Shown here: positions 36,983 to 64,000 of the stretch, one piece after another
Position numbering within the stretch: the stretch's first letter is position 1
Layout: each line of letters opens with the position of its first letter
Assembly: GCA_907165135.1 (NCBI GenBank)
Contig: OU015568.1
Coordinates: forward strand, 10,788,001 to 10,852,000
Direction of reading: 5' to 3'
Origin: Oikopleura dioica
Lineage: Eukaryota > Animalia > Chordata
Length of the DNA stretch: 64,000 bases
Translations under genes and position numbers: made by a program
Notes under the pieces: generated by a model
Databases searched by the model: none
Told to the model about the DNA's origin: nothing
What the model saw: only the letters and a program-made list of their open reading frames with translations

Positions 36983-37538
36983 AAGCTAGACTGAAAAACG
37001 AGATACACGCTAACATCGACTGTAAGATAACTCAAAAGAGTTGATCATGTGGTCACAACAAACCAATTTTGAATATTGCGCCACTCTGATTGGCGCAGCT
37101 GTTTTTCCTCTTTGCTATTTTTCCTTTTTGCTTTACTTTTCTGTTTCTGCTATTGAGATATTTCTTTTTACAGAGAAAGCAAACTTGTTCTTTTTAGACT
37201 GATTGAAATGGGTCTCTGCTTTTCCACTGCCGAGTCGACAACTGGAACTCGAGACTGTATTGTCAGTCGAGTGAGCAGCAAGTGGACTTTGTCATCCTTG
37301 CAAATTGAAGACTCCGCTTCAAAATATGGCTCCAAGTTTCTTGAAATCTGTGACGAGCGATAAACTCTTGCTTGTGTCTCTTGCAAAATAAAGAGTCCAA
37401 AAATTTGAACCAAACATTGATTTTATTGCAATTTTTATAAGCAAGGAAAGTGATTATAGAGTAAAAGGTTGATCATGCAAAGTTTTCATTATTTTGAAGA
37501 ATTGCAGGTGGCGGCATTTTTTGTATCTTTACCCGGAT

Positions 37539-38858
37539 TTAATGCCGATTTTTAGCGTGAAAATTTAGGCTTAAAATCCGAGTTCCTGATTGCGCCGAAG
37601 TTGAGTTGACTAGTATTTTTCTACTCTTTGGGATCTTATAACCCGGCTTGAACTTAATTTTGTGAAATCCTAACCAACCTTGTTTTGCTTCTGAGTTGTC
37701 TTTGGTAACGCCGAGTTTCACTCCTGAGCCGCATTGTAAAGGGTGGATTTTGGGGCTTTGCTCTTCGGGCTTTCTTTTTTCTGGGCGCTTTCTTCGCATC
37801 GGTTTTTCTTCTAATTGCTTTTGGAGAGGTGCATTCTGGCCTGACGGTATGGTGAATTCTTCGGTTCGCTTCTTTTTCATCCCAAGCATATGGGAAGTTA
37901 TTGATAATGAATCTATTTCTTCTCCACTCTCTTCCGAAGAAAAAATTTCGCTTGTTAATTTCTATTTTTTAAATAAAGTTTTTTATCTTTTTAATTTACC
38001 CCAAAGCTCATGCCAAAATGCCAGTTTTCAATTGTTTCACTCCATTTGGGCACCACTAGATTATTGTTATACTTGTGTTATGATGATACTTTTACCTGAT
38101 TTTTTAATGAGTTGAATTTTCTCCTTCCAGCGGCGATTAAGGTCAGCAATTGCAAAGTCGGCTGCTTCGTCTTTGAGAATCATCAAAGCGCGTTGACTTC
38201 GAATGCAGCTTTCGTAGCAAAGTTGCCGGGCTTTTTACGGATTAAGGGCATATGACTTTAAAATTGTCATGATACCGATTAACACGCAAACTAAAGAGGC
38301 TCGGTTGAGGTAGCGTTCGTTTTTAAAGTCTTTGTAGAGAGGATCTTTTTCAGCTTCGTTGTAGAGAGCATCGTTGGGAAAGGCGAGTGGAATGTCTCTA
38401 AAGTCGCAGTCGTAGGGAGTTCTTTTTTTTGTTTGGAAAAGCACTTTCATAAATGATTGACTCTGATTTTCCAACAAATCTTTTTTTTCCTGGATTGGCT
38501 TCGATCCATTCGGCAGAATCAAAATCAATCGAGTTTGGATAGACGGGGGTTTCATTCAAACTGGTTAGCATTTTCATATATTCCTCGTTTCTGCTCACAA
38601 TTGTATGTATAAATGCTAAAAGATTTTTAGTACTATACTCAATTTAAAAATTTTACCAAAGGGTTTTTGAAATTTTTCCTGGACGCTTCTCAAAATTTTA
38701 GCGCGCTCGGGAAAATGTTTTGTTATGGAGAAAGGGACATAGTCTATTTCTCGGTATGCGGGATTTTTGCGAACAATTTCGCCATCAATGGTGGCGGTAA
38801 AAAATTTACTGTATTTTTCCAAAAATTGGTCAATCTGTGGCTCTAACTCTATTTCCAT
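37539..38858 (-). CDS. Orphan viral protein (4 canonical introns, one homopolymer frameshift)
   Basis: ORF fragments 38616-38858, 38398-38598, 38235-38430, about 38090-38220, about 38000-38050 and 37539-37930 are joined by GT-AG introns. The C-terminus is K/R/P-rich. Confidence 0.55.
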
Positions 38859-39056
38859 GATTCGAGTTTGTCGTAATTTCCAAAGGGTTCTGGTTGTGGT
38901 TTTATACCGAGCGATCTGCTCGACTGTGACTGATTACTGGCGCTGTTGTTGAGCAGACTCAAAAAGTGAATAATTATTTTCTAGAATGGGTGTGTTTTTG
39001 AGAGCAATTTTATTCCGGATGCTCAGTTTACTGGTCTTCAACTGAACAGCGGCTAA

Positions 39057-39676
39057 ATGGTTATCACGGTAGGTTTTTAGTGCGGGGCTTGTTAACAATT
39101 TTCAACTAGCGATCTGCTCGGAATCGAAGAATTCAAAAGGCCTTGAGGGCTGCGGCATCTCAGCTTAGAATCGCCAAGCTCCTTGCGCTTGGCGGCGATG
39201 AAGACGTTGAGCAGGCTCGAGCTCGGGACAATGAAGAAATTCAAGAAGTTCCATCGGAAGAGTTCAATGCTCAATCATCTACCCCTGCGCCGCAAAGAGC
39301 AGCTGCCGAGGAATGCGGGGAAAAAACAAAAAAGAAGGGATTCTTTTCCAAGATGCCCCAGCTTCTTAAAAAAAAGCCCACGCCAAAGTTTGACATTTTC
39401 GGTACGTTTTTGCAATTGAAAATTTACTCACATTTTTTAGATAATGATCAACTTGGCCTTGCGTGTGGATTCGATGAAATCTGCAAGGGGCTGTCTACTC
39501 AAGAAAGGCGAGCCGTAGAAAAAGAGATCTTCCGGCTTCAAGGTCTTTTGGAGAAGGAACGAGATTTTCTTTGGCACGATTTACACGCGCAAAGAGTAAT
39601 CGTGCACATTCGAACAAAGAGCGGCCGCAGTATAATTATCAAAGGCCGAGGCTGGACAAGTGAATACGAACAGTAA
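39057..39676 (+). CDS. Orphan viral protein with basic N-terminus
   Basis: MVIT|RSARNRRIQKALRAAASQLRIAK... via a short GT-AG intron, continuing in ORF 39143-39676 (a second in-frame intron is likely). Confidence 0.55.
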
Positions 39677-39805
39677 ACTATTTGCGCCAAGAAACCTGTA
39701 TATTCCCATCTTGAGCTGCAAATAAAATTTCTTTCATAAATCAAAACAACGAGTTCTAGAATTTCTATTTTTGTTTTTGGTTTTATTGAGCTTGTACAGT
39801 TTTAG

Positions 39806-40541
39806 TTACAGAACATGTCCAAAGACCCATATAAATTCGCCAAGTTGCTCTATTTCGCCAAAGAGATTAGTCAAGGTTCTTGGTTGATTCATAGAGGTGA
39901 TGTCTTTTCGGAATACTTCATATCTAAAACGGGGAACTTGTCTTTCGTTGAACAATTCCTCTGCGGCCTCGTAGCCCTCTTTGTGTCCAGTTTTTGCAGC
40001 TACAGTTGGATTGGTGCTGATGTCTGTATTATTGGTAAAGACAACAAAGACTTGCATACAATTTCTAAAAAAATATAATTTTCTAAAAGGCAATTAAAAC
40101 TTACCGCAGAGTAATGGCTTTTTTTCCTTTTTCATAGAAATTCTGTCCGATAAAAATCATTGAAACACCCAAATGCCTACGTGCATAAGTTAGTAAATAT
40201 TCTACAGTTTCGCTGTCGAGACATTTTGATCACTGATCATCAACAATGATCAAAGTGTCGCGCTTATTGTCGTTGGCAAAATTTTTATCGAGCCAAGTTT
40301 GAGTAGGCAAGCCTATTTTTGTGTAAAGCGTTTGATGAGACGGTAGATTAATGTCTAGATGTTCTATTCTTGGCATAAAGTAATAGATGTTGTTTATTTC
40401 ACCGGCAATCGCTTCATTTTCAATTAGACTTTTTACCCACTCACTTTTTCCAGCGCCAGTTGTTCCACAGATGAAAAAAGCAGTTGGGTGTTTAAAGAGT
40501 AAATCGTCAGAATCTATCATTGGTACTTCAAAACTGGTCAT
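39806..40541 (-). CDS. Maverick A32/FtsK-like genome-packaging ATPase (in-frame TGA at 40230-40232)
   Basis: FKHPTAFFICGTTGAGKS (Walker A), LIIVDDQ (Walker B), then the same frame continues YARRHLGVSMIFIGQNFYEKGKKAITLR|NCMQVFVVFTN. GT-AG intron at 40065-40104. Confidence 0.88.
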
Positions 40542-40543
40542 GG

Positions 40544-40999
40544 TTATTCGCTGTCAGAGGTATCGCTGTCTCCACCCAGCGGTTCTGCCACAATGACATC
40601 AATGAATCCTTCGATGTCGTATTTCAAGGCTTGTTTGCGCGAAGCTTCAGTGTCCGTGTTGCGATCACGGTGATTGTTCACGTACACTCTAATCGTGCGC
40701 ATTTCGTATAGCATTGAAATGAGATTATGAAAGTACGCTACTTGCTCGGGATCAGACTTGTCAAAGTTGTTTTCGTTGATGACAAAGCAACCGGTCTTGT
40801 ATCGTTTGTAGGCTTTGGTGTAGCTTGGAGCAACTCCTTTCTTGGGTTTGTCCTTTTTGATGATTTTGCCTGCAAAGTAGATGGCAGATGGATGCAAGGA
40901 TGGCGTGTTGATGTTTCGTGGCTCAATTGTCAGAGCATATCGTTTTTTCTCTTTCTCAAGCAACTCTTTGAAATCAGATGCTTTTGATTTTTCGGTCAT
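40544..40999 (-). CDS. Hypothetical viral protein, 151 aa, abutting the ATPase start
   Basis: Intact ORF; its stop lies 2 nt upstream of the ATPase ATG. No recognised motif. Confidence 0.65.
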   Translation of the reverse strand: MTEKSKASDFKELLEKEKKRYALTIEPRNINTPSLHPSAIYFAGKIIKKDKPKKGVAPSYTKAYKRYKTGCFVINENNFDKSDPEQVAYFHNLISMLYEMRTIRVYVNNHRDRNTDTEASRKQALKYDIEGFIDVIVAEPLGGDSDTSDSE

Positions 41000-41246
41000 G
41001 TTCGAATGGTTGATGCTTGACCGGTCACTCTGAATATATACTGTTAATTTATGCAGAATACACTAGATGTCAGCCTTTGTAAAAAGTATAAATAGCAGAA
41101 CGGTATTAATTTATAACCATTCCGAAAAAAAGAGAATCAGAGAAGGCACGAATCAAGAAAATTGATAAAAAATTCAGGTAAATAGGAAAATTACGAGTCG
41201 CAGCTTTTTTAATTGAAAAAGAGTAGTGAATGATCGCTACTGAATA

Positions 41247-42182
41247 ATGAGCGCCAGAAAAATAAAGTCGAAAAAGAAATACGCCCTTATCGAAGAGGAC
41301 ATTCTCAAAAGCATCGCTTCCAAATTCAACTACAATCCAGATACCAAGTATTTACGATTTACCGCTCCAAAAACTGGTTTGGAAAATACCCCATTGGTAA
41401 AATATCCAGACTATAATGATATTGAGACGAAAAACGGGGAAAAGCTCGCCAAGGCAGCAAACGTCAAAATCCCGATCGGCGAAAGATATCCCTCCTCCTC
41501 CGAAGAAGAAGAGGACGATGCCGAAGAGGACTCTGAAGAGGAAACCGACAGAGAAGAATATCCCCCTTGGTCGGAATACGACGAGCAGGAAAACAGTACC
41601 GAATCCGAGCCCGATTATTATGAAGCCAAGCGCTACGAACCCAAACCCTATACTGAAGAGGAAAAGGGGTCGACCTCGAAAATACCCACTTCCGGAGAAA
41701 GAAGTGACAATCGATCCGAATCCAGTGAGCATCGACGACGGAACGACAATCGATCCACCACAAGAAAGTCAATTCTCAAACATCGAGATGTGGCAAAACG
41801 ACGTGGCGAAGCATCTAAATCAGTTAGGATTAGGGAGCCAGAGCGCTTCAGCCCAATTCCAACAACTACTCATGCCAGGCGCAATAACAGAAAAAAACGG
41901 TCTGTTGTTTTTGACACATTTGATGGGGGCTCGAAACGAGCGAAACGAGCTGACTATCCCGAAAGAGCTGTTTTCCATGAATCCTCTAGTCCAGCAGCAG
42001 CAGCAGCAGCAGGTGCAGCAGCAGACACCACGCCAAGAGACAAATCCGATACAAAACGTGGAGGGCGAATTCTTGCAGGATCACCAGTCCCACCAGACCC
42101 TGATCGACGAGCCCGCTCCACAAATGACACAATCTGGGCAGAAGGACAGCCCCTTGCCGACTGCGAAAACTTTTGGCAGTAA
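41247..42182 (+). CDS. Hypothetical viral protein, 311 aa, with acidic and Arg-rich low-complexity blocks
   Basis: MSARKIKSKKKYALIEEDIL..., followed by an E/D-rich block and an R-rich block. It overlaps the integrase start by 59 nt. Confidence 0.65.
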   Translation: MSARKIKSKKKYALIEEDILKSIASKFNYNPDTKYLRFTAPKTGLENTPLVKYPDYNDIETKNGEKLAKAANVKIPIGERYPSSSEEEEDDAEEDSEEETDREEYPPWSEYDEQENSTESEPDYYEAKRYEPKPYTEEEKGSTSKIPTSGERSDNRSESSEHRRRNDNRSTTRKSILKHRDVAKRRGEASKSVRIREPERFSPIPTTTHARRNNRKKRSVVFDTFDGGSKRAKRADYPERAVFHESSSPAAAAAAGAAADTTPRDKSDTKRGGRILAGSPVPPDPDRRARSTNDTIWAEGQPLADCENFWQ

Positions 42183-43160
42183 TAACAGTCCCAATGTTTT
42201 TCAAGATTCCTTTTATAATCACGAAAAGCCACTTTCATATACGTCTATGGATTTGAAGCGTTTTAAACGCATGAATCCTATTATATCTAGACATAAACCT
42301 TTTAATTCAAAATTTACACGAAATCCTATTATTGCGCCGTCGCTTTATTCTCACTTGATGTCTGATACGATTCATGCGTATAAAAATGACGGAGGTGTAA
42401 ACAATGGATTTAAATATATTCTTGTTGTGATTGATTGTCTTTCGCGTAAAACTTTTGTTCGACCGTTGAAAACATTAAAAGGGGTCGAGACTGCACGTCA
42501 ACTGGAAGACATATTTATGAGTATGCAAGATCGACCAGGACATTCCTTCTTTGAGACTGATTTGGGTGGAGAATATTCTGATCATGTTTTGCCTTTGCTT
42601 GAAAAATGGAACATGACGCCAGTAAAACTGCGTAACCAGCATAAAGCAGCGTTAGCTGAGAGAGTGATGTGAGTTGAGTTTTTATGTTGCTTTGATGCTG
42701 AGTTTGTTTTTTAGTGGAACTCTTCAAGGCAGACTGAGAAAGTATTTTGATGCTCATGACGGGGTTCGAAGATGGGTTCACATTTTGGAAGATGTGAATA
42801 AAGCTTATAATAACACTGTGCATTCTACTACTAATATGGCGCCTAATGATGTAACTCTTGAAAATTCACTTGATCTTTTTAAACGACTTGAAAAGAAGCG
42901 AATGTCTTCTAAACAAAAAAGACATCAACCAAACGGAGAGTCGGCGATTTGGTTCGCATTCCTGTCAAAACATATCTCAAAAATAAGTTTAAAAGGGTGC
43001 AGATCCAAATTGGTCTGATGAACTTTATAAAATAATCAAAATAGATTTTGGAAGTTTGGTTCCTGTTTTTACTTTGGCAGATGAAAGTGGCGCTCCGCTT
43101 CCACGCCGATATTATGAGAATGAAGTGAATTTTGTTAGAAACGTTCTCGATGAAGAATAA
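42124..43160 (+). CDS. Maverick rve-family (retroviral-like DDE) integrase
   Basis: FYNHEKPLSYTS, LMSDT, NNGFKYILVVIDCLSRK, FETDLGGEY, KAALAERVI|GTLQGRLRKYF, YNNTVHSTTNMAPNDV, RVGDLVRIP and FKKGADPNWSDELYKI. GT-AG intron at 42669-42714; two 1-nt deletions in A-runs near 42920 and 42995. Confidence 0.92.
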
Positions 43161-43236
43161 TTTATCTGTCCTTATTAAACTGCAATGCGCGCACTTACAA
43201 ACACCTGTGTTTTTTGATTTTTTTTTAGAGACATTG

Positions 43237-43732
43237 ATGCTTACTAGACAGGGAGCGTTGAGAAGGCGTAGAACCGGCAGACGAACAACCACCACCACAA
43301 CAAAAACTCGGGCTCAAAACACACGAAGAAGAGGTAGATCTTTTGCTCGAAGAAGCTCTCGAAGAGCTCATACCTCGTCTGGCAGCATTGCAACTTGGTA
43401 TCGAAACAGAAGACGACAATAAAAGTATGAAATTTCGAAAGAGAGCGTTAACATATCCTCCAGATGGCGAATTCGGCGACTTGTTTTCCGATTGGGAAAC
43501 TCATTCCTTGGCTGGCGAAACTTGTCAAGAGAGCATCCAAGAAGACCTTTGCACCGAAAAATGGCACACCAACTGGTACAGCAAGTGGTGTTTCGAAAAT
43601 CGGATGTTGCGAATGGTGTTCAAAGGATGCGTTGACACAAAATCTCTTCTTATAATGACTTTATTGCTGATAATCGTAGTTGGCGTAGTCGTTGTTTTTA
43701 AACTAAATTTTATTTCCTGTGTGATTTTTTAA
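43237..43732 (+). CDS. Small viral gene with ambiguous reading frame (Arg-rich 61-aa ORF vs acidic ORF with C-terminal TM)
   Basis: ATG at 43237 lies just downstream of a T-rich AG. Frame 1 gives MLTRQGALRRRRTGRR...RRQ*. The +1 frame gives EEEVDLLLEEALEELIPRLAAL...LLIMTLLLIIVVGVVVVF. Confidence 0.45.
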
Positions 43733-43747
43733 ATAAATTTTTTTTAG

Positions 43748-45592
43748 ATGGCGGAAACATTTGGACAGCTTCTTTATTTGACTGATAAATCGGCCACAGA
43801 TGATCCTTATAAAGGAGAAATCTGTGTTGGTCGATTGGGGAGTGAAAATACTCCAGGAGTGATTTTTTTTGATGTTCCGGAAGATAAAAGATCGCTCAAG
43901 CCGGAATTGTGCATGTTTACGTATAGGCTTTTGGTAGATTCGAATTACGTTCCGGATAATGGTTTGCACGCTAAAATGATAAGAAGACTGGTCATTAGAC
44001 TTTGTGATAATCGTCTCTTTGATTCGTTTGACTTGCACGAGTATACGTTTATCAATCAGTTTATAACAAAACTGAACATGTCTGAAATGACTCAAAATAC
44101 GGAACTTTTTCCAAGTGGACATTGGGACAGTAGGGAATTGAATACTGATGAGCTGGAGGATCATTCTTTGTATCACAATAACAAAAAAATTGTCGAGCAT
44201 CGACATTCTTATGCGGAAAAGATTTGGAAGCCAAAGTCAAATCTTACAGTCAATACAGATAGTGAGGGTATTTCATGCGAGTATTTGGTTTACGAATATG
44301 ATATAAGAGCGCCGCTTGTTCATGGGTTGGCTAGACAGCCACGCGTCCTTCCGGCAAATACAAGAACTTCTTTTGAAGTTGAGTTGAATACTTTGGCAAA
44401 TTTTTTGATGAAAGTATCCGACTATCAAAAGTATCGAACATCTACAGACAACAGTTCTAAGTTTGTATATCCTTTCAACAAGCACCTTAAAACCACTCGC
44501 AAGAACAAAGCGCATGCGACTGCGGCTGTTTGTGACTGCGCAAATTTTTATAAAAAAGGAGGACATGGAAAGTACACCCATGTTTATAAAACAAAGTCAA
44601 ATGGAAAGTACGATTTTGAAGAAGAAGTTGATGAGACAATTTTCAGCAAGGACAATGACAACGTCAATTGGAAAGCGCATACAGTTTTTTATGATGAAGC
44701 AGATTTGGCTCGAGAAACGATCGATGGTAAAGATTACCTTGTTTTTTATATGGAAAATGTCTTGAAAGAAAATGAATTGGCGAATCCAATAGACTTTATG
44801 CTTGAATCTGTTTTTGTCAACGCGGCAAAGATTGAAAGACCATTGACTACGGGTAAATCAGGTGAAGTGAGTATTCCTTTCTTGTATCCAAAATTTGTGG
44901 CAAAAAGATTCAAACAAGGCTTGCGAACCGACACTTTTGAGGTGTCGTCAGGAAAAGTGAGAATTTCATAGTTTGTTGTTGTTGTTGTTGTTTCAAATTT
45001 TCATTTAATAACAGGTCCGCTTCCACATATGCTCGTTTTGACTGGAATGCCAAATGATCAGTTTACATCTCCTTCTTTTGACACGTGCTTGACAAAAACT
45101 ACGATGAACGATCCTGCCTTTAAAATCAAGGAATTTACAGTTTTTGTCAATTGGAGAACACATTTTAGAACGCCATGGAGAAAACCCCTTGATCATTATC
45201 TAAACTATCTGAGACACAATGGCAGATATGCAAACAAGTCGCTCGGAGGTGGAATGGATTTTTTCAAGTTTCAAAACGAAAATTGGATGGTTCCATTGTG
45301 CTTTGATGACGATATCGGAATGTCGGGCACAGTCAACGTCAAAATCACCTTTGAAAAGCCTGTTGAAAAATTTGGAATTTGCTCGTTATGAAGATTCCGA
45401 TTGAGGAGCTTCATCTTAATAGAACACGAAACGGTTGGTTATTATTTCACTTTTTTTATTATCCATTTTTTAGAAGCATCTGTCATGCAAACAAGTGTGA
45501 CTGGTACAAAACGAAAGACTGATGACTTTTTGCTGTACAATGAAATCGCAAAAAGGCGAATGAAAGAACATCTTGAATCTGTTGAAAAGTAA
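43748..45592 (+). CDS. Maverick major capsid protein (PY, double jelly-roll type), about 580 aa
   Basis: Maverick-MCP-like segments: APLVHGLARQPRVLPANTRTSFEVELNTLANFLMKV, FMLESVFVNAAKIERP, FEVSSG|PLPHMLVLTGMPNDQF, YLNYLRHNG, SGTVNVKITFEKP and WNLLVMKIPIEELHLNR. Introns GA-AG 44952-45014 and GT-AG 45434-45473; 1-nt slip near 45370. Confidence 0.8.
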
Positions 45593-45678
45593 TTGTAACT
45601 GCTCTAATAAGCTCCCTCGTTGAATAATAAATAAGACAGCCCTTTTTAAGCGCGAGTTTAGTAATTGCAGGTGTAGAA

Positions 45679-48600
45679 ATGAAACGGATCTTGGCCCGAG
45701 CGCCAAGAGGCAAAATTGAAAAAAATCAAAGAAAAAAGAACCAAAGATTTTTATTCTCAAGAGAAGAAGGGCAAAGACATCGATCAAAGCAAAATAAAAA
45801 AGACTTGTATACAGGGTATCCTGAGGGTGGATGTTCCTACGAAATATTCGATAGTGAGCAAGTTCCGCCACCATCATCCTCTCCACCGCCACAGTCTCTG
45901 AAGGCGAATGCTACACGTAATTCTCATTCAGAGTGTGCGCTCGAAGATTTGGATTTTGGAAATGGTAGCAGCAGGGATTCTGAGCGGATGTCTGACAATT
46001 ATTTCGATTGTCCTGTGTCTGACAACGATGGTGATGACAGTGACGCTAATTCCCGTGCTGACAGTGATTTATCTTTATCGGAGGGAACTGTCAGCAATGT
46101 TTATTCCGCAATATTGATTGGTATCAATTGGTGGAACTTTTACAAAAATGCTCTCCTCATATTCCAAATAAATTTACAAAAGCGCTTCGTCAAAGTTTGA
46201 TCAAGTGTGACCCTAGTGAGCTGGAGAGGCGATTTGGGCGGCGACCTACTCGAGCACATTTACCCCAGATTGAAGAATATTTGGGGATTGATTTGTATGT
46301 GCTTCTTGGAGGTAAATTTTCTCCATTGGCGATTTCGTACCGACCGTATCGAGCAAGTGGCCCGCTACACATGCGAGATGTTTTTGACGAGATTGAACAT
46401 CAAAATTGCCACTTGGGCACGCATAAAAGACCGGTTGTTGTGCTTCAAGCGGCTCGAGCGTTTTTTCATACTTTGGGCGTTTTTTATACGATTCCACATC
46501 GGCGCTCGCTGCAAGTGATTGAAGGCGACTGGATTAGCATTTGGGCTGCGATTGTTTCCGCACGTTGGCCGAAGCTGCCCAAAGCTCAATACAGTACACA
46601 GATTTTAAAATTAAAAAGCGAGCTTGGGCTTGCTACAAATGAAATGTTTCAAATTTCAGATGGAATATTTCACAAAATCCGGGTTAAATTTGGAATTGCC
46701 GTTCGACTTTTTGTTGCAACCTTTGTCAACGATAATTGCAATGATAAGACGTGTTTTTATTCGACTCTTGGCGAGGCGGACAATGTCGTGCTGAATATAC
46801 TCGTGGCGAGTTATGATGAGGATGATTTTGGTCGAGAATTTCGCGAGTTTTCTGGAATGAGTTATCGTAAGCTGCAAGAGGAGCCATATCGCAATCCGGT
46901 ACTTGCCTCAAACGTGGATTATTCTCGGCGGAAAGAGATTGCCGTCAATATGGAGGATGAAGAGATTTGTCGAGTGATGCGATGGCAAAAAGCTAGCTCA
47001 TTTCACAGTAAACGAGATCGAGCGATTCTTTCAAAGCGCAAATCTACAGATGGAAGATTTCAGCAGTCATCGTCAACAAAAATTGACAGATTAAAAGAGA
47101 TTCACCAAAAACAGTGCGCCGCCATTCGCAAAGAGTCGAAAAAACAGCGCAATGCGTTTATTGACGACGAGGCAGAAGATTCTGACGGAGGATCGTCGTC
47201 AGATTTGAGTCTACACGATAGCGATTTAGAATTCATCAACGATAATGAATCTGATTCGTCGGTTGAAGTCGAGGCCACACCACCACCACTACCACGCCAA
47301 TTGCCTGTTTTTGACGCTGCAAGTAGCAGTAGCAGCGATGAATTTACAAGTTCTTTTGAGCCGGTTCGTAATTTGGCTGGACTGGTTCCAAACGTGTTTG
47401 ATGAGAATACGCGAGTTCGAGTGCTCAAAGATTCAGAAGTCAAGAAATTGCCAGTTTGCCCGACTCGAGGATGCTTGTACACATCGTCTCGAAAAGAGTA
47501 CTTTGACAAGCATGTTAAAACGTGCAGCGGCGAAACAAAGACTTGGATACGCCAGAGTGTTCAAGGTTCACACGTTTTTGATTTCAAAAAAGAACTTGTT
47601 TCCGAAGGCTACTTGCCAAGTGAAGATTTTTGCGTCGACTTTTATGTGGTTTTTGATATTGAATGTTTGATGAGTGTGGGGCCCTTTACCAATTGTACAT
47701 TGAATGAGAATGTGAGCAAATTTCACAATGTGAGCACAATTGCCTGTTTGACCTCTGATTGTCGTCAAATGGGCTTCACTCGACGCGACATGAACTACGA
47801 ATCAAGCCTTGTCATGATCACCGAGTTTGTCAATTATCTGCTCTCTCTAAAGGCGGAATTGCGCCGCGATCACGTGCCAGAATGTGTTCTCACTGGAATT
47901 GACTTTTATTCGGCGCGGATAAAGAGCCGTCTTTCGATGCGCATCAATGATGGAACCACTCTTGCAAGTTATGGCGAAATGGGCGAATTTCGAAAAAAGC
48001 TTCAATATTTGCAGAGTTTTATGAAATTGATGGTTTACAGTTGGTGTGGAGAGACCTATGATCTTACGGTCATTTATCCAATGTTGATGGCGGTTTTTTA
48101 TGAATTTTGCGGTCAGAATACGTCGAAAATCAATGTCATCAAACGAGGCGGCGGCTACATGCTGACAGAATGCATGGGGCTGAGTTTCCGCGATTTTAGA
48201 AATTATACGGCTCCGATGAGCTTGGAAAAGCTGGCAAGATCGTGCGGTCTTGATCCATCACGCTACAGTAAAGGAAGCTATCCGTACGAGTGGTATACGT
48301 CTATTGATCAACTTTCAAGAGCTACAGAATTTCCTGCCTACATTTGTTTCTACTCGTCAATGTATGCAAAAAGTCGCACCCCTGCCGAGCAAATGAATAA
48401 AATAATCTGCGAAAGAGTGGCCAGCAACGACTGGGCACGCAATGAAGACGTATTGCTTGATATTTTTGGCTTTTTGAGACTTGACTCGCTTGAAAACGAT
48501 CCCGCTTTGAGGGAATTCTTTCAGGAGGAAAATTCAATGCTTGTTAGCGATCTGGGCGTCAACAATGCTACTGAGCTGTGCGCGCATTATTTCGAGCAGC

Positions 48601-54219: not shown

Positions 54220-56309
54220 TTAATTGCTCAGAAGATAATCGATCAGGTCTCCGGTGATTGAGTCACAATCGGCTGGTGCTCTTGTTTTTCCTATATTTTT
54301 TGGTAAATATTTTGAAATTATGAAAAAAGTCTTACCGTTTGATTGTGAAAGAACCGTCGAATCTTCTCTACGATGCGTTTCATCATCTGACTTTGAGACT
54401 TGTTGATCAGCTTTAGGCGGCTGATCGGCGTTTCCAGCGGCAACTCCATCAGTGCAGTTGTTATCGGATGCATTGACTGAGTGCTCATCCGTCTTGCCCG
54501 CCTGTTTTTTAGAAATGAGTGAAGATTTTTCTCCGGTGGTGATTTTTATACCCACAGAGTCGTTCTCCTTAAATATTCATGCTTGATTTTTTGAGTGATC
54601 AATTATATTTTTACCTCGACATTGTCGTAGACGGGTATCGGGTTTCGTGGACCCTTCTTTTTCGAATACATGATAAACTGCCCCGCGCTGTAATAGCCCG
54701 ATTGTTTAACCGTCTCTTTGAATTTGGCCGCTCGATTTTCGTAGTATTCAAGCAGATGTTTTTCTTTCATAAATGCGGAGATCCTATTCTCAACACAATC
54801 GCCAAAACTTCCATTCAGCACCAGCTCGCAATACAAGGCCAAACAACGGGAAATCATAGTATGGATAGTTTTATCAAATCCAGAATTGACAAAACTGCGA
54901 GCGTTGCTTTGTGCACATCTATATCTGTTTCTGGTTTCTTTATGGCGTAGAGTTTCAGCAGTGCCAATATGTTTTGTGTTTTGTAGTACTCGCTCATCCC
55001 AACACATTTGAAACGCATCCTGATACTTGTATCTTTCGTCTTCTGCCCATTCGGCGAGAAATTTTCTAATGAGAATTAGGGCAGCAACATTCGTAAATTT
55101 GTATTCGTCTCGATAAAGAAAGAGTCGATTCATTGCGCAGATAAATTTTTTTGTTCTTTGGTTCCATTCGTTAAACTCTCCAAAGTGGCGACCCAGTGGC
55201 CCATTTACTGTCGCGTTTTTCTTGATGTCGTTGGGAATCTTTTGAAAATGCGCCAAATGATCGAAACTATCGTCGTCGAGTCCTGCAAATTTTGCATCTG
55301 GATAAAGTGAGCTCCCAGCTGAATCGAGAAACATCAAGTACCGAAAAAAGTCGCTGTCAAAAAGAGACTTTGTATCAAACTCTGCATTGCCCACGAAGCC
55401 ATTTGAAACCATTTTTAATTTTGTGTCGAGATAAGTTGTGTCGCAAAGCGTCTTTAGCAGCCCCAGATAATCGTGTGTGATGTCAGTCCCAAAATGAAAA
55501 TCAACATCATCAGCGGCATTATTTTTATACGGAATAGCAGTCCTCTTTAATCGCGAGTAAAGTCGCCAGTTATTATCGTCTTTACGGCCTCCGACCTCGC
55601 AACTTCGATAAAATTTCAAGCCAAGAATAACCGTCCAAAATTCTATCTGAGCAATTTGTCCAGATCTTTGTTGAAGCTGGGGCAAAACGTAAACAGAATC
55701 AGGATTGATGATCATTTTTCCACATTTGTCAAATTTTGAACTTTTATGACAAATTCGCGTAGTAGGATGCCGCAGTTTGCAGCAAACTGCTTTTTTAATT
55801 TCAGTTTTGGAGGCCAGTGTTGGAGGATTCGGTTCAGGAACATAATTTGAAGTCATAAATCGCTCCAAAGCAGCAAATGAAAAAAAGGATCCAATTCCAG
55901 TAGACTCATTTAATCGATGTTTAATGTCCACCCAATTGAGCGCTTTTGGTTGAAATGGTTCTCCGCCTTCAACCATAAGAGGACACTGCTTGAATATACT
56001 ATATCGAGCCGTTACCAATGATTTCATATGTTGGCAATATCTGTACCAAGTGCGAAAGTGGAACGACAGCGGCTTTATTCTTTGACTCTTTCGCAGCGCG
56101 ATCGGCAAATCAGGAGACGTACTCGCAGGTCTTTTTCTTGTCGGAGAGGTGGCTTGAAAAAAAAGAAAAAATAAAAAACATTTTGCGCCGGGTTGCTTAC
56201 CTTTTGGCTTTTCAGGAATAATTTCTTTGAGTGTTTCGGCAGATGAAATACGGGTAGATAAGGCATTTTGATTGACCATTTGAAGATCAGCAGTAGTAAA
56301 AATCGGCAT
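54220..56309 (-). CDS. Large orphan viral protein (about 650 aa, spliced)
   Basis: ORF 54603-56309 splices (YDNVE|ENDSVGIKITT) into ORF 54220-54555. Globular-looking core with many aromatic residues and a Cys cluster CCKLRH...CH...C. Confidence 0.7.
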
Positions 56310-56404
56310 TGTAGATGAAGAATCACACGTTGAAGGAGGAGCTGTACAAGATTGAGAGCTAAATTTTGAAAAAATGAAAAGAAATTGAAAGTTTAAATCT
56401 TACT

Positions 56405-56731
56405 TTAAAGAGTCGAAAAGAAATCCTCCAGTGGAATCTCGCCTCCGGTCGCTACCCACCAAATGAAGAGCACTATCAGAACCATCAGGCATGCCATTCC
56501 TATCGCTCCAGTTATGAACGCACTCGTTAATAGACCCGGCTGGAGTCGAATTAGTCTCTGCTCTTGGGGGTAAAACACTTGAGGTCGTTCCCGAGGAGTA
56601 TACGGTGGTGGTTGATCCTCCGGAAAAGTTTCTTGACTCTCGCTCGAGTTGTAATGCGAGGTCGTGTGGCCCGACCATCCACTGCGAATCGTAGATTCCG
56701 GACTCGAGCCCAGTACAGCTGGAGTTGAGGA

Positions 56732-56768
<37 letters not shown>

Positions 56769-57247
56769 CCACAAGTCATTGGAGGTGGCGGCGGTGTCAA
56801 AGTACTCGTTGAACTGCAGGAGCTCATTGTAGGTGTTGTTAGACGGATTGGAGTGATTGTTCCACTCTGACATCGATCCACCAGTATTGTTGAAACCTCG
56901 ACACCAGTTTCGCTGATTGGAGTCGTCCTCCCGCTTGTTGACGGCTCCCCCCGAGCAAAATAATTCGTCATATAGAGCAGTTGTTCCTCCCATTGAGCCT
57001 CCGGTTCCTCGTATTCCTCCGGCATGTCCATCGACAGAATCGGCTCCTCGTAAATCTCGTCTATGTAGTCCTCCTCTTTCATCAGAGCCATCTCGGGAGC
57101 TGCTTCGAGGGCATCCGTAAATGGAGTCTCGCTGTTCTCCCAAAGCGTGTTCGTCTTTATTTTCAAATTTAATAAAACAAAATTGAAATACAAATTAACC
57201 TGTGTTAGATCTGGATACTCCTGCTGTTTGTTCTGCTGACTTTCCAT
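56405..57247 (-). CDS. Viral tail-anchored membrane protein with PPxY motif
   Basis: Acidic N-terminus, poly-Ser tract, DQPPPYTP and C-terminal TM AFITGAIGMACLMVLIVLFIWWVA. Confidence 0.65.
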
Positions 57248-57399
57248 TCTCGATGCCTTTTTAAAAAAAAAATGTTACAAATAAGTCGCTTGGATGAAAG
57301 TGTGTCTCTTTATTCAAATCTTACTTTTCATACACAGGCTGGTGTCCTGTCGGAAGGTGAGAAAAAATATCAAAAATGCTCACAGGAAAAAGGTTCAAA

Positions 57400-59206
57400 T
57401 TATTTTTTTTTCGCAGCTCTATCAGGCAAAACTCGTCTCGTGGAAGTTTGATCTCGAGCTGGTCGACGTTGCCCCTTTTTATTGCCCACTTCGTTGCTGG
57501 TGACGACTTCGGCGCTATCAGGATTTGGGGTGTTATCCTGTTGAACCTCCTCCTCCTCCGGTTGTTCGACGATGGCGGCGGCGGCGCTTAATGAAAATAG
57601 AGTAAATCACACTCATTTACTGCATACAACGTTACCTCTCTATCTCGATCACAGTCTGCGCCGTAGCATCTGCGACTTCATCCGGATGAGCCTCGTCATT
57701 CTCTTGTTCTCCATCAATCGCCATATCCAAAGGCTTTAATTACTCGTCAAAATCAAAACAAAAAAAATATCACATACCGAGATAGTCTCTTCCAAGTCTT
57801 GGCTCGACAGATTCTTGAGCTTGCTTGTCTCGCCCGCTTCTTTCAATTCGTTCACCAAATGCAAGCATCTGAGCATTTTTTTGGTGTGTGGAGTAATCAA
57901 CAAACCGTTGATTTTCTTTAGCGCCTAATTGATTTCAATTAACACGCAATTCCAAATTATGGCAATAATTACCTTTTTTGGGCTCTCGTGTGCAGTCACA
58001 ATATCCGGGCGAGTTAAATCAACATCGGAAAATGACAATTTGGGAATTGGCGAGAGCGGTACATCCTCCAAGCGAGTAGAAGAAAAATAGTTGACGATGG
58101 CGGGACCAGATGGACTTCGCGGAATTGTTGTTGTAACTTCCGATGGTGGCGGCGGCGGTGGAGGAAAAGAAGCAGGCTGCTGGATAGTCACTTTCGCCTC
58201 GACAGGAACTTGTTCTTCTATCCCTCCTTCGTAAAACGGATTTCCTCGTATCTCGGCGGGATCTTCATAAACAGGCTCTGGAACGAGACGCTCATCAACT
58301 TGTTGAACTGCGGCGTGATGTGGGTTGTCGCGAAATTGCACCCCATTTACTTGTTTCGGCGCTGGCAACAGGGGGTCCTTCTCTTCCTCAGTTCTCACAA
58401 TATTTTTGTTCTCTTTCTTTTTCTTTGATTCGGCTAAAACAACAGATTACTTTTTGATTTTTGAAAAAAAGATAAACCTTTGTAAGAATAGAGACTGCCC
58501 TCGCGATGAAACAAGTACAAATCTTCGCCTTCGTTTGGCTCCTTTTTGCAGCAAACTTCGCAAAAACAGTTCAAGTAGTTGCCGATTCCGTTTTTATGCT
58601 TTGCGCAAAAGTTGCAAATTCTCTTTCTCCAAACTTGCGGAAACTCTTTCATGCAATAAAAGAGCACAAAAAGAACAACACAAACGCAGATGATTATCGA
58701 CCAAGTGTTGTCAGATTCGGCAGCGGTCTGGATTGGCTCAGTAGTCGGTGTTTCGCTGCAAAAAATTTTTTTTGTGTTTTTAAGGTGCATCCAAAACTGA
58801 GGTGCAGTTGAAACTGAGGTGCTTTTCAATTCAAGGTGCGAAAAAAAAAATAATAAGAAAATAATATTCTTTTTTAATAAATCAAAAAACAAGCACCTTG
58901 AATCTAATCACCACCTCAACTCCAAAAGGTACCTTGATTTCAAACTTACCTAGTAACTGGAGATTTTTTCCCTGGAGCGTCTGGTTTGACTACAATTTTT
59001 TTAGTGCCCTTGTTCATCCTCCACTCGATACACTCAAGAGTGAATTCGTCTACGCCGCCCAGCCTGCACCGATTTTCCATATCAATTTGAGTCTAATCAA
59101 GGGCTCAATAATTTCAAAACTTTTAAGCAAAAAAAATCTAAAATTTTGAGACCTTGACCTGAACTTGTGGCAAAAGCCAGACTAGGATGATCATCGTCAA
59201 CGACAT
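57400..59206 (-). CDS. Viral type I membrane glycoprotein-like protein with long Tyr-motif cytoplasmic tail
   Basis: Signal MSLTMIILVWLLPQVQV, short Cys-containing ectodomain, T/P-rich stalk, TM WSIIICVCVVLFVLFYCM, Cys-rich juxtamembrane segment, and a tail with PVYEDP, NPFYE and a polyproline run. At least 6 introns. Confidence 0.6.
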
Positions 59207-59240
59207 GTGACTATCCCCGTCTAAATAATTTTTCTTTGAA

Positions 59241-60523
59241 TTAAAAGTACAAGAAAAATTTTCTTTTTGAAAGGCAGTCGGCAAATTCTTGGCTTTGACT
59301 TTGTCGATTTATGTTGAATTTCTGCCAGCCGCTCCAGGTTGCAATGTCTTTGTCCATTTGTTGTGCGCCAAACTAAAAAACGGCGTTACTTTGAGAAAAA
59401 ACAAATCATCACTTACCAAGCCCATCAGAAAGCCATTTTCCGTAAATGTTTGTTTGATTATGTGTTTGATGTAAGCATCTGTTGGATCGACAATCGGATT
59501 GAGCGCGGTAATTGTAGTAATGCACTTTGGCTTGCAATCGTTCAAGCGCAAACGAATTCCAATCATAAATTTGTCAAAACCCTCTAATCGATCGTTACAG
59601 TTCATTAGACGAGCGCATGAATCGAGCACTTCCGATCGAGGTGTTGTCTTTTTACTCGAAAGCTGGATCGCTCGCCACAAAAAGGTCTCAAGTTGTCGAT
59701 CAATGCAAACACTCTGATGTCGAGATAAATCAGTCGGGGCACGATCGAAAAGAAAACGAGAGTCCATCTAAACATGAATATAAGCTTTTTTCTTCTTGCT
59801 TGATAATGTACCTGAGTAAGTAGTTGTCGTAATCTTTCACAAAATTTGGGTGGTGTTGGACTAGGCAAAAAACCCATCAATAGAAGCAATGATGCTTTTT
59901 CTTCTCCAAGAGGATCTGCTCGTGTAGGCCAAGGACAAGCTATTCGCGGCCCAACAGAACAAGCCGCCTTCAAAACTGTAAACGGATTTCCCAGTGAATT
60001 GTCGCACATGTCAATCAAGTCCCAACTTCCGTCAATAAGCTGAATCTATACAAAATTTCAAAATTTTGGCTTGTTCACGCTTACCCAAACATGAATCTTT
60101 TTTGGAATGATGATTCCAGTCAATGGCGCAGTTGTAAACTCGACAAAAAACCCGCCAATTTGATGCCACGGAATCAAATCGACTTTTTCTGAGCTTTCAA
60201 TGTAAAGGCTGCCAACCATCGGAAGAACACTGGCTATTGGGCGAATGATTTCTACGGCGCGAGGATTAACACAAGATTCGTTGACTTGTTTGCACATCAG
60301 CTGAAAAACGTTGCCGAATCGTGAATGGCAGAGAGAATTGCCAAGTCCAAGGCATTCCGTAGTGACATCGAGATATCTTTTTTTCAAAATATCCGAGGCG
60401 TCGAAGCGAGAATTTTGAGGAGTTTCATCTAAAAAGCCCTTTTTAACACAATGATGGACACGAATAAAGAGAATTACCTAAAGTTTTAGATGAAATATGA
60501 ATCAACTCGAAATACGGATCCAT
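59241..60523 (-). CDS. Orphan viral protein (5 exons, about 370 aa)
   Basis: MDPYFELIHISSKTL| joins by canonical GT-AG introns through ORFs 60058-60387, 59605-60018 (part) and 59309-59767 (part) to a stop at 59241. Confidence 0.65.
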
Positions 60524-60748
60524 AGAAGCAAAACTTGTTTTGTGCTTTAACTGTAATCGACGTCTTGGCGGAGTTTGCGGTCTTTCTAAACGAACTTGAG
60601 TCTTTTCTCGACACGCTCAATTACTTTTTGCTCGCTGAAATTGTGATTCCTTCACACGCGAAAAATTACGTCCCATTCAGGCTAAAACAAAATAATCAAC
60701 CCTGTGTCCTGTTTCAGTAGTAAAGTAGCTCAAAGGTGAAGACAAAAT

Positions 60749-61682
60749 TCAAGTGTTTTTCGTCTTGAGTTCTTCAACAACTTTCTTGAAGTTTTCTCGA
60801 GCCTTGACGGGAGTAGTGGCTAAAAAGAATTGATTACACTCAATTTAAAAATAAAAAAGTTACCTTCTGGAGTGAAGAAGCGAGTTTCCTCTTCTTCGTT
60901 TTCGACTTCCAAAATTCGAGGAATTGGTGGAGCGGGTCGTCGAGGTCGAAGTCTTGGCACTGGAAGCTCATCGTCGAAGAGCAACTGGCGTCGAGACGGC
61001 CCAGCAATCGCCATTGGCGAAATTGTTCGCACTCGCAAGGAAGGTTTCTGCCGAGGCTTGTTTGGAGATCGAGCAAACGCAAATCCTCCGGTGTAGTCGC
61101 CTACATTTCCGCAAATTTGCACTCCAACATCGGAAGTAGCCACGGCTGAACACAATAATTTAAAGCGATCTCACTTGAACTAGAATTACCTCCAACTCCT
61201 TTAGCAATAGTCTTGGCGACGGAAAACGCCTGGCTAATCACAGACTTCTTCTTTTTGGGCTCGGGCGATTCAGGCGGTGTTCGAAAAAGCGACTCTCGGC
61301 GCAAAGGTGCTTCTGGCTCAGCTGGTGGAGGAGCGAACTGAGGGATCGGAGGAAGAGGTCGCGCGAGCACTTGAATATGAAATTAACTCAACTCATTTTT
61401 TGAATTTTTAATACTTTTGTTGGCTTCTTTCTCGAGCAAAGAAACTGCCGCTGTTTTGGCCTTCTTGCCCGCCTTTCGTGCCGCTTTGACGATTTTTCGT
61501 CGGCTAAATTTGATATTTAATATAAACTGATTCATAGTGCTAAAATACCCTTTCTCGATGAATCCGGGGGTCATTTTTGAAGCCGAAGTCGATTGTTGAG
61601 TATCAGCGTAAAGCCTCTTGCGATTCTTCTCGGCGATTCGAGGACTTCGCCTCGGAACTGGTGGAGGAGCTGCGCCAGACAT
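60749..61682 (-). CDS. Pro/Arg-rich disordered viral protein with short linear motifs
   Basis: MSGAAPPPVPRRSPRIAEKNRKR..., several PxxP motifs and SRRQLLFDD; spliced across ORFs 61383-61682, 61101-61370 and 60820-61155. Confidence 0.55.
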
Positions 61683-61900
61683 TTTACACTGAGCCTTCTA
61701 TAAAATTTAAAGAGATTAAATTTTTTCCCTACAAATTTAATAAAGGCCAAATTATGCAATTAACAATGAGAAGAAGGTTGTTGGAACTTGAGCGGAAATA
61801 AAGGCAGATACCGAGTAAAAGTTTAGAGGTAAAGTTAAGAGAGTAAGTTTTTTAGAGGTAAAAATTTCAGAGCCGAATTAAAACTATTTTTTTCAATGAA

Positions 61901-62782
61901 TTAACAACCCTTTCGCTTGCCGAGCTCAAAAAGATCAGGCTGGATGGGTTGATTGTCCACATAAACTGTGGATCCAAGCTCGCTGGAAGACTCTTCGCCC
62001 ATCAATTGCCCATCGTAACGATTGATTGGAATATCTTCCTCGCATCGAATGTATCCCTGAAGTGGCGGATCCACATCATGAACGGTGAAGGTGCGAGTTG
62101 TGTGGATCGTCATTCTGGGGTGAGAGCCGTAAACCGCATTCTCTGGAGGGTTCAAAGTGATGAGCCCAGTGTGTCCAAGTCCCGTCACTCGATACTGATT
62201 GTAGAGTGCCTAAAAAAATTTAATTTTGAACAAAAAAGGATCAAAAGTTTACCTCGTAATGGGGTCGCTTTCGAGGTCGAGACTGGAATGCAGCAAGAGC
62301 CGGAGCTGAGGGTGTAGGCTTCTCCGACGCAGTCTTTTTAGCTACAAGATTTGTAGCGACTTGCGGCGGGGCAGGAGGCAAGATCGTCGAGTATGTCGAT
62401 GGATCTGCAAGAACAACTCCTGTCTTTACATGCGGGGCAAAAGCCGCAAGCGCTGGTGGTTGAGCCGCTGCGGGAGTAGAATCGCCAGCATCAGAGTTGT
62501 CCAAAGTTTTCTTTTGTGCCTTTGGAGAGCCAAAAGGAGAACTATTGGAGTGTATGGTCGGCAGCACCTAAACAAAGACGTCAATTTTTTTCAGCGCTCT
62601 TTTAAACTAACCTGCATCTGTCGAGGACCAAATCGACCACCCCGGTTAAAGTTGCCGCCAAAAGAAGCACGGGGCTTGTACGCTCCAGGAGAAGGCTTGG
62701 CTCGCGGTGGAATTGGCTTCCAGTAATCTTCATCTTCGCTGTCAGAAGACACAGAAACCCGTTTTTGGCTATTTTTTTTCAT
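61901..62782 (-). CDS. Orphan viral protein (3 exons)
   Basis: ORFs 62591-62782, 62241-62567 and 61901-62188 are joined in frame by two GT-AG introns. RGG-like and Pro/Ala-rich N-terminal half. Confidence 0.6.
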
Positions 62783-63179
62783 TTTTTTCGATTATCTAAA
62801 AAGTTAAAACATTTACAAAAAATCAAAGAAATATATTCCAGTGCTGACAGGTGAGAGAAAGAGGCTTGTTATGAACCTTGGGACAAATATTTCAATGGAA
62901 CTTTTAAAACGCGATCTGCGCGTCAAGTAAACTTGACAGATAGAAAAGAAACGCAACTAGCAGGCTAGCAAGTTAACAAAACTAAGCTAAAGAGATAAAC
63001 TTATCTAACAAAGAAAGACGCAACTGGCAAGGACAAGAGTCCTAGAAAGAGAGAGAAGGCTAGAAAAAAAGGCTAAATAAAGCGCAGCCTAGATCAAAAA
63101 TTAAAAATCAAAAATATACGAGGAATGGTGTCTTCGTAACGGCAAAAGTTCCTAAATAAGCAATAAGCTAAACCCTTTT

Positions 63180-64000
63180 TTATGAAAACTTACAGATAAA
63201 AACGGCGGCTTCCATGGCATCTTGGAACTGAGCAATCGCACCTGATCCCTCTTCAATGGCGTCAATGGCGTCTTGAAGATTTGTTGGCGGCTCTGGAACA
63301 TTGTCTTCTTCTCCAGATCCAGATCCTTCTCCAGCAATGTCAGGGTAGAGCTCAGCCATCTTGCGACGAATGTCACTTGTAGTAGATCCCAAGCTCGAGT
63401 AGGAGATTGAATCTAAATAAACAAATTAGCGCTGTTGCGCGAAGCGCGCCACTTACCATCACTAGCCAATGGGGTGACTGAAGAAAAAGACTCGGGAGAA
63501 GCTGGCTCTGACTCTGGAGAAGAAGCTGGAGCGTATGGAGGTGGAGGAGTCTTGGCCATGATGCTTTCTGGGCCAGGTACTTTTGGGTCGGTAGATCGTC
63601 CGCTGCGCCCACGACTTCGACTTCGACTTCGACTTCGAGTAGAGCTTGGAGTCGACTGGGCTAAAATCAAAATTAGAAAAGGATTAATAAATTTTTTATT
63701 ACCGAAGATTTCGTCTTCGTCGCTGGATCGGACGATTCGATTGGCGGTCAGATTGGCGGGGATTTCGGGCGTCGAGGTTTCCGGAGTATTGCAGAACGGC
63801 TGTAACTGCCGCAGGCTTGTAGACAAAACGATCCAAAGGGAAGCGCCCATAACAATTGCGCCAACTGCAAGAACCACGTTCTTCCAGAAGTTGCTGCATT
63901 GGCTTGCCTTCGATCGTTTTGTCTGAATAAAATGCGTCAAAAGTATTCAATAAAAGAAAACAACTCACCTCCAAAACGTAGCCACTGTTCTCCGCAAGAA
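63180..64000 (-). CDS. Viral membrane protein, partial (5' end outside window)
   Basis: TM VVLAVGAIVMGASLWIVLSTSL, RIVR/S, an RS repeat, PPPPY, then a spliced exon with EGSGSGEED and EEGSG. Confidence 0.55.

Follow-up and report, generated by a model that had tools for sequence, protein, structure and literature searches.

The DNA described here is a stretch of 64,000 nucleotides of the Oikopleura dioica genome (contig OU015568.1, positions 10,788,001 to 10,852,000 of the forward strand), referred to below as the window, the right part of which is occupied by a large mobile element of the Maverick/Polinton type. With good confidence it can be read as a recently inserted provirus of a divergent lineage, carrying predicted introns of host type in its core genes as well as elsewhere, which would have been gained long ago and inherited virally. 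All four core genes named in a preliminary description of this DNA, those for the packaging ATPase, the integrase, the major capsid protein and the polymerase pPolB, are present, together with about 16 further genes between positions 35,991 and 64,000, where about 14 had been claimed. Genes and introns were placed by hand, in such a way as to keep long frames open. Short-read contigs were taken from two DNA runs of two studies, X1 and X2, X1 being possibly of the same source as the window.

The polymerase pPolB (45,679 to 52,578, forward strand, three introns) matches PF03175 on two exons (E-values 2.5e-8 and 4.5e-10), as do the polymerases of Mavericks/Polintons, and its exonuclease and polymerase motifs are intact. 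A search with it returned 18 relatives, which are 35-50% identical and stem from O. dioica and metagenomes, and comparison of its profile with PDB sequences gave a single match (E-value 0.09). The rve integrase (41,401 to 43,160, forward strand) has an intron at 42,669-42,714 and two assembly frame breaks in its C-terminal exon. Its rve match (E-value 2e-4) lies under the Pfam cut-off; it keeps its DDE motifs and has orthologues in the relative L002 and in the annotated O. dioica protein P0031. On the reverse strand, the A32/FtsK-type packaging ATPase (39,806 to 40,541, intron at 40,065-40,104) possesses the Walker A and B motifs of this enzyme, though the window copy carries an in-frame stop at 40,230-40,232. 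Its L002 orthologue is 48-65% identical and matches Pox_A32 above the cut-off (E-value 8.6e-6).

The major capsid protein gene (43,748 to 45,592, forward strand) has two introns, at 44,952-45,014 (GA-AG, private) and 45,434-45,473 (GT-AG, shared with relatives), and one assembly frame break. The protein has no Pfam match; 11 homologues were found at 33-46% identity. A fold model of one relative, P0021 (46% identical to the window capsid; predicted local distance difference test, pLDDT, 61), has the capsids of Sputnik, vaccinia D13 and mavirus as its top PDB matches (E-values 2e-4 to 9e-4, with low template modelling scores), all of them double-jelly-roll capsids. The top viral matches of the model are a bracovirus-labelled protein and a MELD virus protein (E-value 9e-7), and in the Atlas it falls in Preplasmiviricota clusters with a score of 0.97 but low recognition. 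Judged from this modelled relative, the capsid gene appears to be of the double-jelly-roll type. The four core frame breaks (two in the integrase, one in the capsid gene and one in pPolB) are assembly errors and not introns, since short-read contigs disagree with the assembly at each, both integrase breaks having been checked in X1 and X2 and the other two in X1 only. Intron models for the breaks near the polymerase start, in the capsid gene and in the integrase tail were therefore rejected.

The left end of the element is read directly in the sequence as an AGTAGT motif at 35,991, with which the empty-site contigs agree, so that the boundary of 37,150 given earlier is wrong. The motif opens a short left terminal inverted repeat of about 42-53 bp (35,991 to 36,043, forward strand), preceded by what appears to be the left copy of a 6-bp target-site duplication, AGCGCG (35,985 to 35,990, forward strand). 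Empty-site contigs have loose ends at 35,980 (X1) and 35,990 (X2) and continue into other DNA, and contig depth falls from about 120-200 in the flank to 66-72 just inside; the element is thus present on only part of the chromosome copies in both samples. One X1 contig spans 36,003-50,963, and a second, of 17,514 nt, runs from 50,957 to the window edge without extra letters and then 4,466 nt beyond it. On the opposite strand this second contig matches 36,003-36,043 over 41 letters. No inverted copy of the left end lies within the window itself, and the right repeat is most likely beyond 64,000, at the end of the 17,514-nt contig. Because this one unbranched contig links the right-arm genes to the inverted terminal repeat, those genes lie inside the element, and the possibility that they are host genes outside any repeat-bounded element falls away. 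A second loose end of X1 resembles a right junction in which, as judged by eye, the flank is separated from the repeat by six additional letters. The search for terminal repeats and a 6-bp duplication past the window, proposed in the preliminary description, thus led to both, the duplication being deduced by eye from the X1 and X2 loose ends with its right copy incompletely read.

The element is likely about 32.5 kb long, 28 kb of it already within the window. Polintons measure 13-25 kb with repeats of 100-1,500 bp (PMC10748475; the literature here and below is cited from partial texts), and are known up to 40 kb (PMC6431247), so that the term "oversized" used earlier is apt for the norm but not for such outliers. 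The size comes mostly from the accessory genes and the long polymerase, introns contributing only 2.9 kb in the window. The G+C content is 41.5% inside the element and 41.9% outside. In the pieces listed, the difference between X2 and the window amounts to only 0.12% of letters in the element but 1.6% in the flank, which points to a recent insertion or a recent spread of the element.

Predicted introns of the element

In total, 38 introns are predicted in 16 of the about 20 genes (35 GT-AG, two GA-AG and one GG-AG), in keeping with the earlier statement that nearly every gene, all four core genes included, is interrupted. The ATPase and the integrase have one each, the capsid gene two and pPolB three, and introns are densest on the right arm (25 of 38). 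Their median length is 44 nt and their median A+T content 73%. The intron sizes agree with those of O. dioica, which peak at 47 bp (PMC5240408); the earlier label "host-sized" suits the 32 of 38 that measure 38-49 nt but not one polymerase intron of 1,037 nt. The first capsid and first polymerase introns are missing from the relatives examined, and both require a GA donor to keep the frame; GT at 44,957 and at 49,858 were considered as donors and rejected, being in the wrong phase. GA/AG introns make up 12% of O. dioica introns and are three-fold commoner among new ones (PMC4122922). Given that the introns are short and host-style, with donors of the Oikopleura type, and that no alternative splicing is shown, the adenovirus-like splicing proposed earlier is unsupported.

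Relatives with an identity of about 40-50% share five of the core intron positions. In L002, the introns of ATPase and integrase recur with unchanged position and phase; the last capsid intron occurs in L001 as well as L002, and the last polymerase intron is in L002 and L003 and absent from L001. All ten unspliced capsid homologues end within about 14 residues of the last capsid intron, and the proteins P0030, P0031, P0046 and P0048 read past this point into sequence resembling the last exon of the window gene. Gene L, downstream of pPolB, has its break at a matching place in L001 and L002, this comparison being one of reading frames and not of splice sites. Comparison of these sequences suggests that the introns are probably old acquisitions, handed down within the viral lineage, which likely depends on the host splicing machinery. 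The right arm contains 17 strong donor-acceptor pairs in the sense and four in the antisense direction, with a mean of 4.3 and a maximum of 12 in 200 shuffles, so that the sense count clearly exceeds chance there.

A number of observations weigh against reading the element as an intron-bearing provirus of this kind. The donor-acceptor count is not enriched in the core (four sense, 12 antisense, shuffles 6.1) or on the left arm (three sense, six antisense, shuffles 3.4), and for that reason the core introns are argued from homology. For as many as 30 of the 38 introns there is no homologue that could serve as a test, and these were placed by eye; at least three are in frame without a stop. In the RNA runs X5, X8, X11, X14 and X17 no read or contig was found with any element intron spliced; these runs gave short partial matches only, neither flank nor element being closely matched, and X8 is probably from another population, as its host flank is matched only in part. 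The right end is deduced from the contig joint and may lie anywhere from 64,001 to about 68,480, while contig depth (about 120-200 in the flank, 67-91 within the element and 66-72 just inside it) is not readable as copy number. Several relatives are known from metagenomes alone. The ATPase stop is also in the X1 contig and X2 differs at that codon; the stop in the window copy is real and not an assembly error.

This stop, like the assembly frame breaks, would suit a dead Maverick in which the supposed introns are insertions and decay that followed integration, and insertions in decayed vertebrate copies are indeed called introns (PMC8097293). Such decay is very improbable here and already largely refuted, given that the four core breaks are missing from short-read contigs, that five core intron positions are held in common at such divergence, and that the catalytic motifs are intact in an element whose X2 copy is nearly identical.

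The insert in the polymerase gene

The 1,037-nt predicted polymerase intron (50,783 to 51,819, forward strand) lies at VYx|NSKL, between motifs B and C, and runs from GG to AG. A 10-bp inverted repeat is present at its ends (50,787-50,796 and 51,802-51,811), its fold has a z-score of -3.3, and it also contains a GC-rich hairpin and four 12-nt repeats. Nested within it is a putative RING-finger gene of 216 amino acids (51,097 to 51,785, forward strand) with its own predicted 38-nt intron and a match to zf-RING_5 under the cut-off (E-value 1.3e-5). The four 12-nt repeats (50,936-50,985) resemble an X2 contig starting with AGTAGT, possibly the end of another Maverick.

Among 20 polymerases, the site is interrupted in six (the window and five relatives), continuous in seven and spliced in two annotations, with five not reaching it. 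On a tree of the upstream exon the interrupted and continuous states require one change, compared with 4.6 in shuffles and with none of 500 shuffles as low, the branch dividing the two having a support of only 35/75. All six inserts begin with G, the donors being GG, GA and GT, and both inserts with DNA read end in AG in phase 0, with the boundaries G|GG...AG and G|GA...AG. The insert of L003 at this site (3127-3468) is 342 nt long with a GA donor and a z-score of -7.8, and has four perfect hairpins of 10-14 bp whose loops are all GAA or GGA (GNA); hairpins of 9 bp or more occur only once in the entire window. Part of this hairpin insert is shared by the tail of P0005. A 16-of-19 motif common to the window and L003 inserts is weak, being reached by 86 of 500 shuffles over the whole inserts and by 21 of 2,000 when only the first 120 nt are taken, a region picked afterwards.

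Group I introns have a U before the 5' site and a G at the end, and group II introns follow the form GUGYG...AY. The boundaries of the inserts fit neither set of rules. No credible Rfam match was found in 35,500-64,000 or in the 1-kb insert, and the L003 insert gave only terminator-like hairpins below the cut-off and no intron family, so a self-splicing intron of group I or II was rejected. From its sequence, the insert reads as an old spliceosomal intron with changing cargo. Alternatively, it may be an element that is mobile and specific for this site or that processes itself, or else an insertion by which the gene is inactivated. The GC-rich and structured nature of the insert, unlike the other introns of the element, its pairing ends, the hairpins of L003 and the varied donors at the site would favour this. 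We regard it as unlikely, since every insert starts with G and those read in DNA finish with AG in phase 0, the boundaries and the Rfam results are not those of group I or II introns, the exon after the insert retains YCDTDS, and the insert carriers fall, if weakly, on one side of a branch.

Accessory genes, expression signals and flank

On the left arm, gene A (37,654 to 38,183, reverse strand) is predicted to encode a basic protein of 131 amino acids without Pfam match and has one predicted intron (37,962-38,095). Gene B (38,235 to 38,858, reverse strand) has one predicted intron (38,616-38,656) and a frame break in its second exon, which may be a fifth gap of the kind corrected by X1. Gene C (39,057 to 39,676, forward strand, 179 amino acids) is a model with two predicted introns, one of them in frame without a stop. 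Gene E (40,544 to 40,999, reverse strand, 151 amino acids) is intronless, and L002 has an open reading frame (ORF) in the same place and strand. ORF F (41,247 to 42,182, forward strand, 311 amino acids) overlaps the integrase frame by about 780 nt; its N-terminal part is conserved, with 36-37% identity to L002 and P0031 over 61-67 amino acids. The same +1 relation is seen at the 5' end of the L002 integrase (1675-3544), and the annotated protein P0031 fuses parts of ORF F and the integrase. Between integrase and capsid genes lie an arginine-rich ORF of 61 amino acids, ORF H, possibly encoding a core protein, and an overlapping ORF that ends in a hydrophobic stretch (43,237 to 43,732, forward strand); neither has a Pfam match.

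Gene L (52,655 to 53,580, forward strand, 295 amino acids, intron at 53,064-53,101) is kept downstream of pPolB in L001 and L002, its second exon being 37-40% identical to theirs. This exon was folded as a minor-capsid candidate and gave neither a jelly roll nor a clear fold (pLDDT 51, best Z 5.3), its best viral structure match on this poor model being a Drosophila adintovirus 2 protein (E-value 0.003). In L002 the order is the same as in the window, namely ATPase, small gene, overlapped ORF and integrase, small gene, capsid, polymerase and gene L. Beyond gene L, both L001 and L002 turn to minus-strand ORFs without similarity to the right arm of the window, from which it follows that this arm varies.

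The right arm consists of gene models on the reverse strand. Gene N (54,220 to 56,873) would encode 822 amino acids with four predicted introns, and gene O (56,405 to 57,247; 265 amino acids, one predicted intron, in frame), with a predicted membrane anchor near its C-terminus, is overprinted on the first exon of gene N. Gene P (57,400 to 59,206; 477 amino acids, six predicted introns) is a predicted membrane protein with a hydrophobic N-terminus and a central hydrophobic stretch. Gene Q (59,241 to 60,523; 368 amino acids) has four predicted introns, each with a stop or a frame change, and no Pfam match above noise. Gene R (60,749 to 61,682; 251 amino acids, four predicted introns) is basic and proline-rich, gene S (61,901 to 62,782) has 264 amino acids and two predicted introns, and gene T (63,150 to 64,000), open at the window edge, has at least 224 amino acids, four predicted introns and one hydrophobic stretch. 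The last predicted intron of gene T (63,150-63,193) lies within its stop codon. An LxCxE motif was absent from the 11 ORFs checked.

Alternatively, the right arm may derive from host DNA that the element has picked up and transports as cargo, comparable to the intron-bearing genes wasp and krma in nematode Mavericks (bioRxiv 10.1101/2022.07.12.499685), and would then not consist of viral accessory genes of long residence; such an origin is compatible with the core as described here. The density of host-like introns on this arm and the unrelated ORFs of L001 and L002 past gene L speak for it. Against it, overprinting of one gene on another, as in genes N and O, is a viral habit. Moreover, the right-arm exons scanned belong to no Pfam family, and a 515-aa part of gene N, the only right-arm gene searched in this way, has no homologue among 5.8 billion proteins (283-902 aa), a database that includes O. 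dioica proteins, nor in the Atlas. On balance, host cargo is considered rather improbable.

Genes on the same strand are often 34-86 nt apart. Seven of 17 start codons are directly preceded by a strong, seemingly unpaired acceptor. The same holds for one internal ATG out of 305 and for 57 non-coding positions out of 536 (p 0.001 for the starts versus the non-coding positions). Both operons and trans-splicing are known in O. dioica (PMC5240408), which makes trans-splicing a fair prediction, and these acceptors suggest either host-style trans-splicing or introns in 5' leaders. Against trans-splicing, the choice of starts was made by eye and was guided in part by these acceptors, and an equal signal would be expected from cis introns in 5' leaders. 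A few X8 poly(A) reads (loose ends of five and four) agree with the capsid gene for about 45 nt and then continue, as translated by eye, like the capsids of relatives; they may represent DNA carry-over.

The host flank (1-35,990) is dense in ordinary genes, including those for NFACT/NEMF, a proteasome subunit, ribosomal protein L13, a rhodanese domain, RhoGEF and a carboxypeptidase. The insertion lies just beyond a host gene with partial X8 RNA matches at 34,070-34,728. An inverted repeat at 16,134-16,726, with 217-nt arms that are 99% complementary and 159 nt apart, looks like a young miniature inverted-repeat transposable element. At 23,277-24,500, tandem 75-nt and 15-nt units form nested inverted arms, probably a repeat-rich non-autonomous element.

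Relatives, comparison with known systems and meaning

The capsid profile had 68 matches among 1.84 billion representatives; in the 20 that were looked up the one species name was O. dioica, and none was labelled as a known Maverick capsid. All relatives of the polymerase or the capsid that carry a name are from O. dioica, and the lineage likely lives in larvaceans. Viral contigs contained no relative when searched by polymerase exon, polymerase alignment, capsid alignment or terminal motif. Two X1 contigs of 18,148 and 23,240 nt have short matches at 46,114-49,507 and 56,155-56,174, and the former touches pPolB twice and is likely another family member. By sequence the clade is an isolated one, the polymerase tree being built from this clade only and not from reference Mavericks, and an undescribed virus group is plausible. 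The isolation of the capsid and the contig that joins the right arm support the earlier proposal that this Maverick lineage is divergent and host-adapted and has an enlarged accessory arm.

With animal Mavericks/Polintons (Polintoviricetes, adintoviruses; PMC8502044, bioRxiv 10.64898/2026.06.19.733378) the element shares pPolB, the rve integrase, the A32-type ATPase and the predicted double-jelly-roll capsid, as well as terminal inverted repeats, an (AGT)2 end and a 6-bp duplication, which lies within the 5-8 bp range of such elements. Unlike them, it has introns in four core genes, about 20 genes and a length of about 32.5 kb, and its capsid has no Pfam match and, in the matches looked up, no named homologue outside Oikopleura. 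A further difference is that neither an adenovirus-like maturation protease, usual in group 1 Polintons, nor a minor capsid gene of the single-jelly-roll type was recognised by Pfam in the exons scanned, four small exons falling outside the rescan and 4.5 kb of the element lying beyond the window; these absences also count against the provirus reading. They would fit a lineage that has lost the ability to form infectious particles and spreads solely as a transposon copying itself in the germ line, as would the lack of relatives in the viral contigs searched and of evidence for particles or free DNA. We consider this loss of infectivity somewhat doubtful, as dozens of diverged relatives have kept the capsid gene, with its fold apparently retained, the ATPase is conserved in L002, and divergent genes can escape Pfam, as the capsid does, or lie in the unseen 4.5 kb.

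Vertebrate Mavericks (PMC8097293) share the (AGT)2 ends, the 6-bp duplication, accessory regions flanking the core and repeats down to 46 bp, but have eight intronless core ORFs in 12.7-24.6 kb, with no introns reported in intact elements; the Oikopleura element has neither that ORF set nor that size. In nematode Mavericks (bioRxiv 10.1101/2022.07.12.499685) intron-bearing genes also lie between the repeats, but the core is intronless and introns are confined to a cargo region of 2-5 kb. Dinoflagellate polintoviruses (PMC12166617) have spliceosomal-type introns in Polinton-like proviruses; these are young introner insertions in a protist host, whereas the Oikopleura introns are mostly unrelated short sequences with positions kept across deep divergence, in an animal host. 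Protist Polinton-like viruses hold group I introns (PMC12220804). The spliceosomal MING-1 introns and shintrons of mirusviruses (PMC12768974) are likewise long-lived and gene-carrying and occupy a fixed core-gene site, and the intron richness of these viruses has been read as a sign of nuclear replication (PMC12768974). Mirusviruses belong to a different virus realm, and the cargo of the Oikopleura intron is a RING gene or hairpins, with no nuclease found.

Mavericks are a known repeat class in O. dioica (PMC5240408, figure legend). No account of introns in Oikopleura Mavericks was found in the literature searched, a coverage that left aside the founding Polinton papers, Repbase and supplements. 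The word "Oikopleura" is absent from the accessible portions of PMC8502044, bioRxiv 10.64898/2026.06.19.733378 and bioRxiv 10.1101/2024.03.25.586562, as is "Maverick" from those of PMC13326754. Maverick core genes are described as intronless (PMC8097293, PMC8502044, PMC10748475), and since the surveys in these papers select uninterrupted ORFs, a lineage rich in introns would escape them or be classed as decayed. Three features are new here, namely the predicted introns of host type that every core gene has inherited, a polymerase intron with a gene inside it, and an extensive accessory arm of orphan genes.

In the life cycle proposed for the provirus, the rve integrase would insert the element with a 6-bp duplication and pPolB would copy it from protein-primed ends. 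Transcription would be nuclear and by host RNA polymerase II, and the permissive spliceosome of Oikopleura would remove the introns, those with GA and GG donors included. Capsid and ATPase would package the progeny, the stopped ATPase of the window copy needing another copy to do so. The process by which the host genome gained its introns would go on supplying the element with private ones, and this would tie the lineage to nuclear life in hosts with a permissive spliceosome. Inherited introns in polymerase, capsid, integrase and ATPase would likewise imply nuclear transcription and tuning to the spliceosome of one host.

More tentatively, and with rather low confidence, larvaceans may have to themselves a clade, at family level, of large nuclear polintoviruses that still circulate in the plankton, with host-style expression through short introns in every core gene and trans-spliced, operon-like clusters, and with an old polymerase intron that swaps its cargo. 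Such a fixed-site intron would, by analogy, be an animal-virus counterpart of the MING-1 introns of mirusviruses, and larvacean polintoviruses could then move introns and genes between larvacean lineages. The host is a laboratory animal, and with the insertion polymorphic, splicing and free genomes are open to direct search. Carrying private GA-AG introns alongside old shared ones within single genes, the element offers a small, datable system for intron gain in Oikopleura, and the inheritance of its introns bears on the replication site of Polintons and on the origin of spliced DNA viruses of the adenovirus kind.

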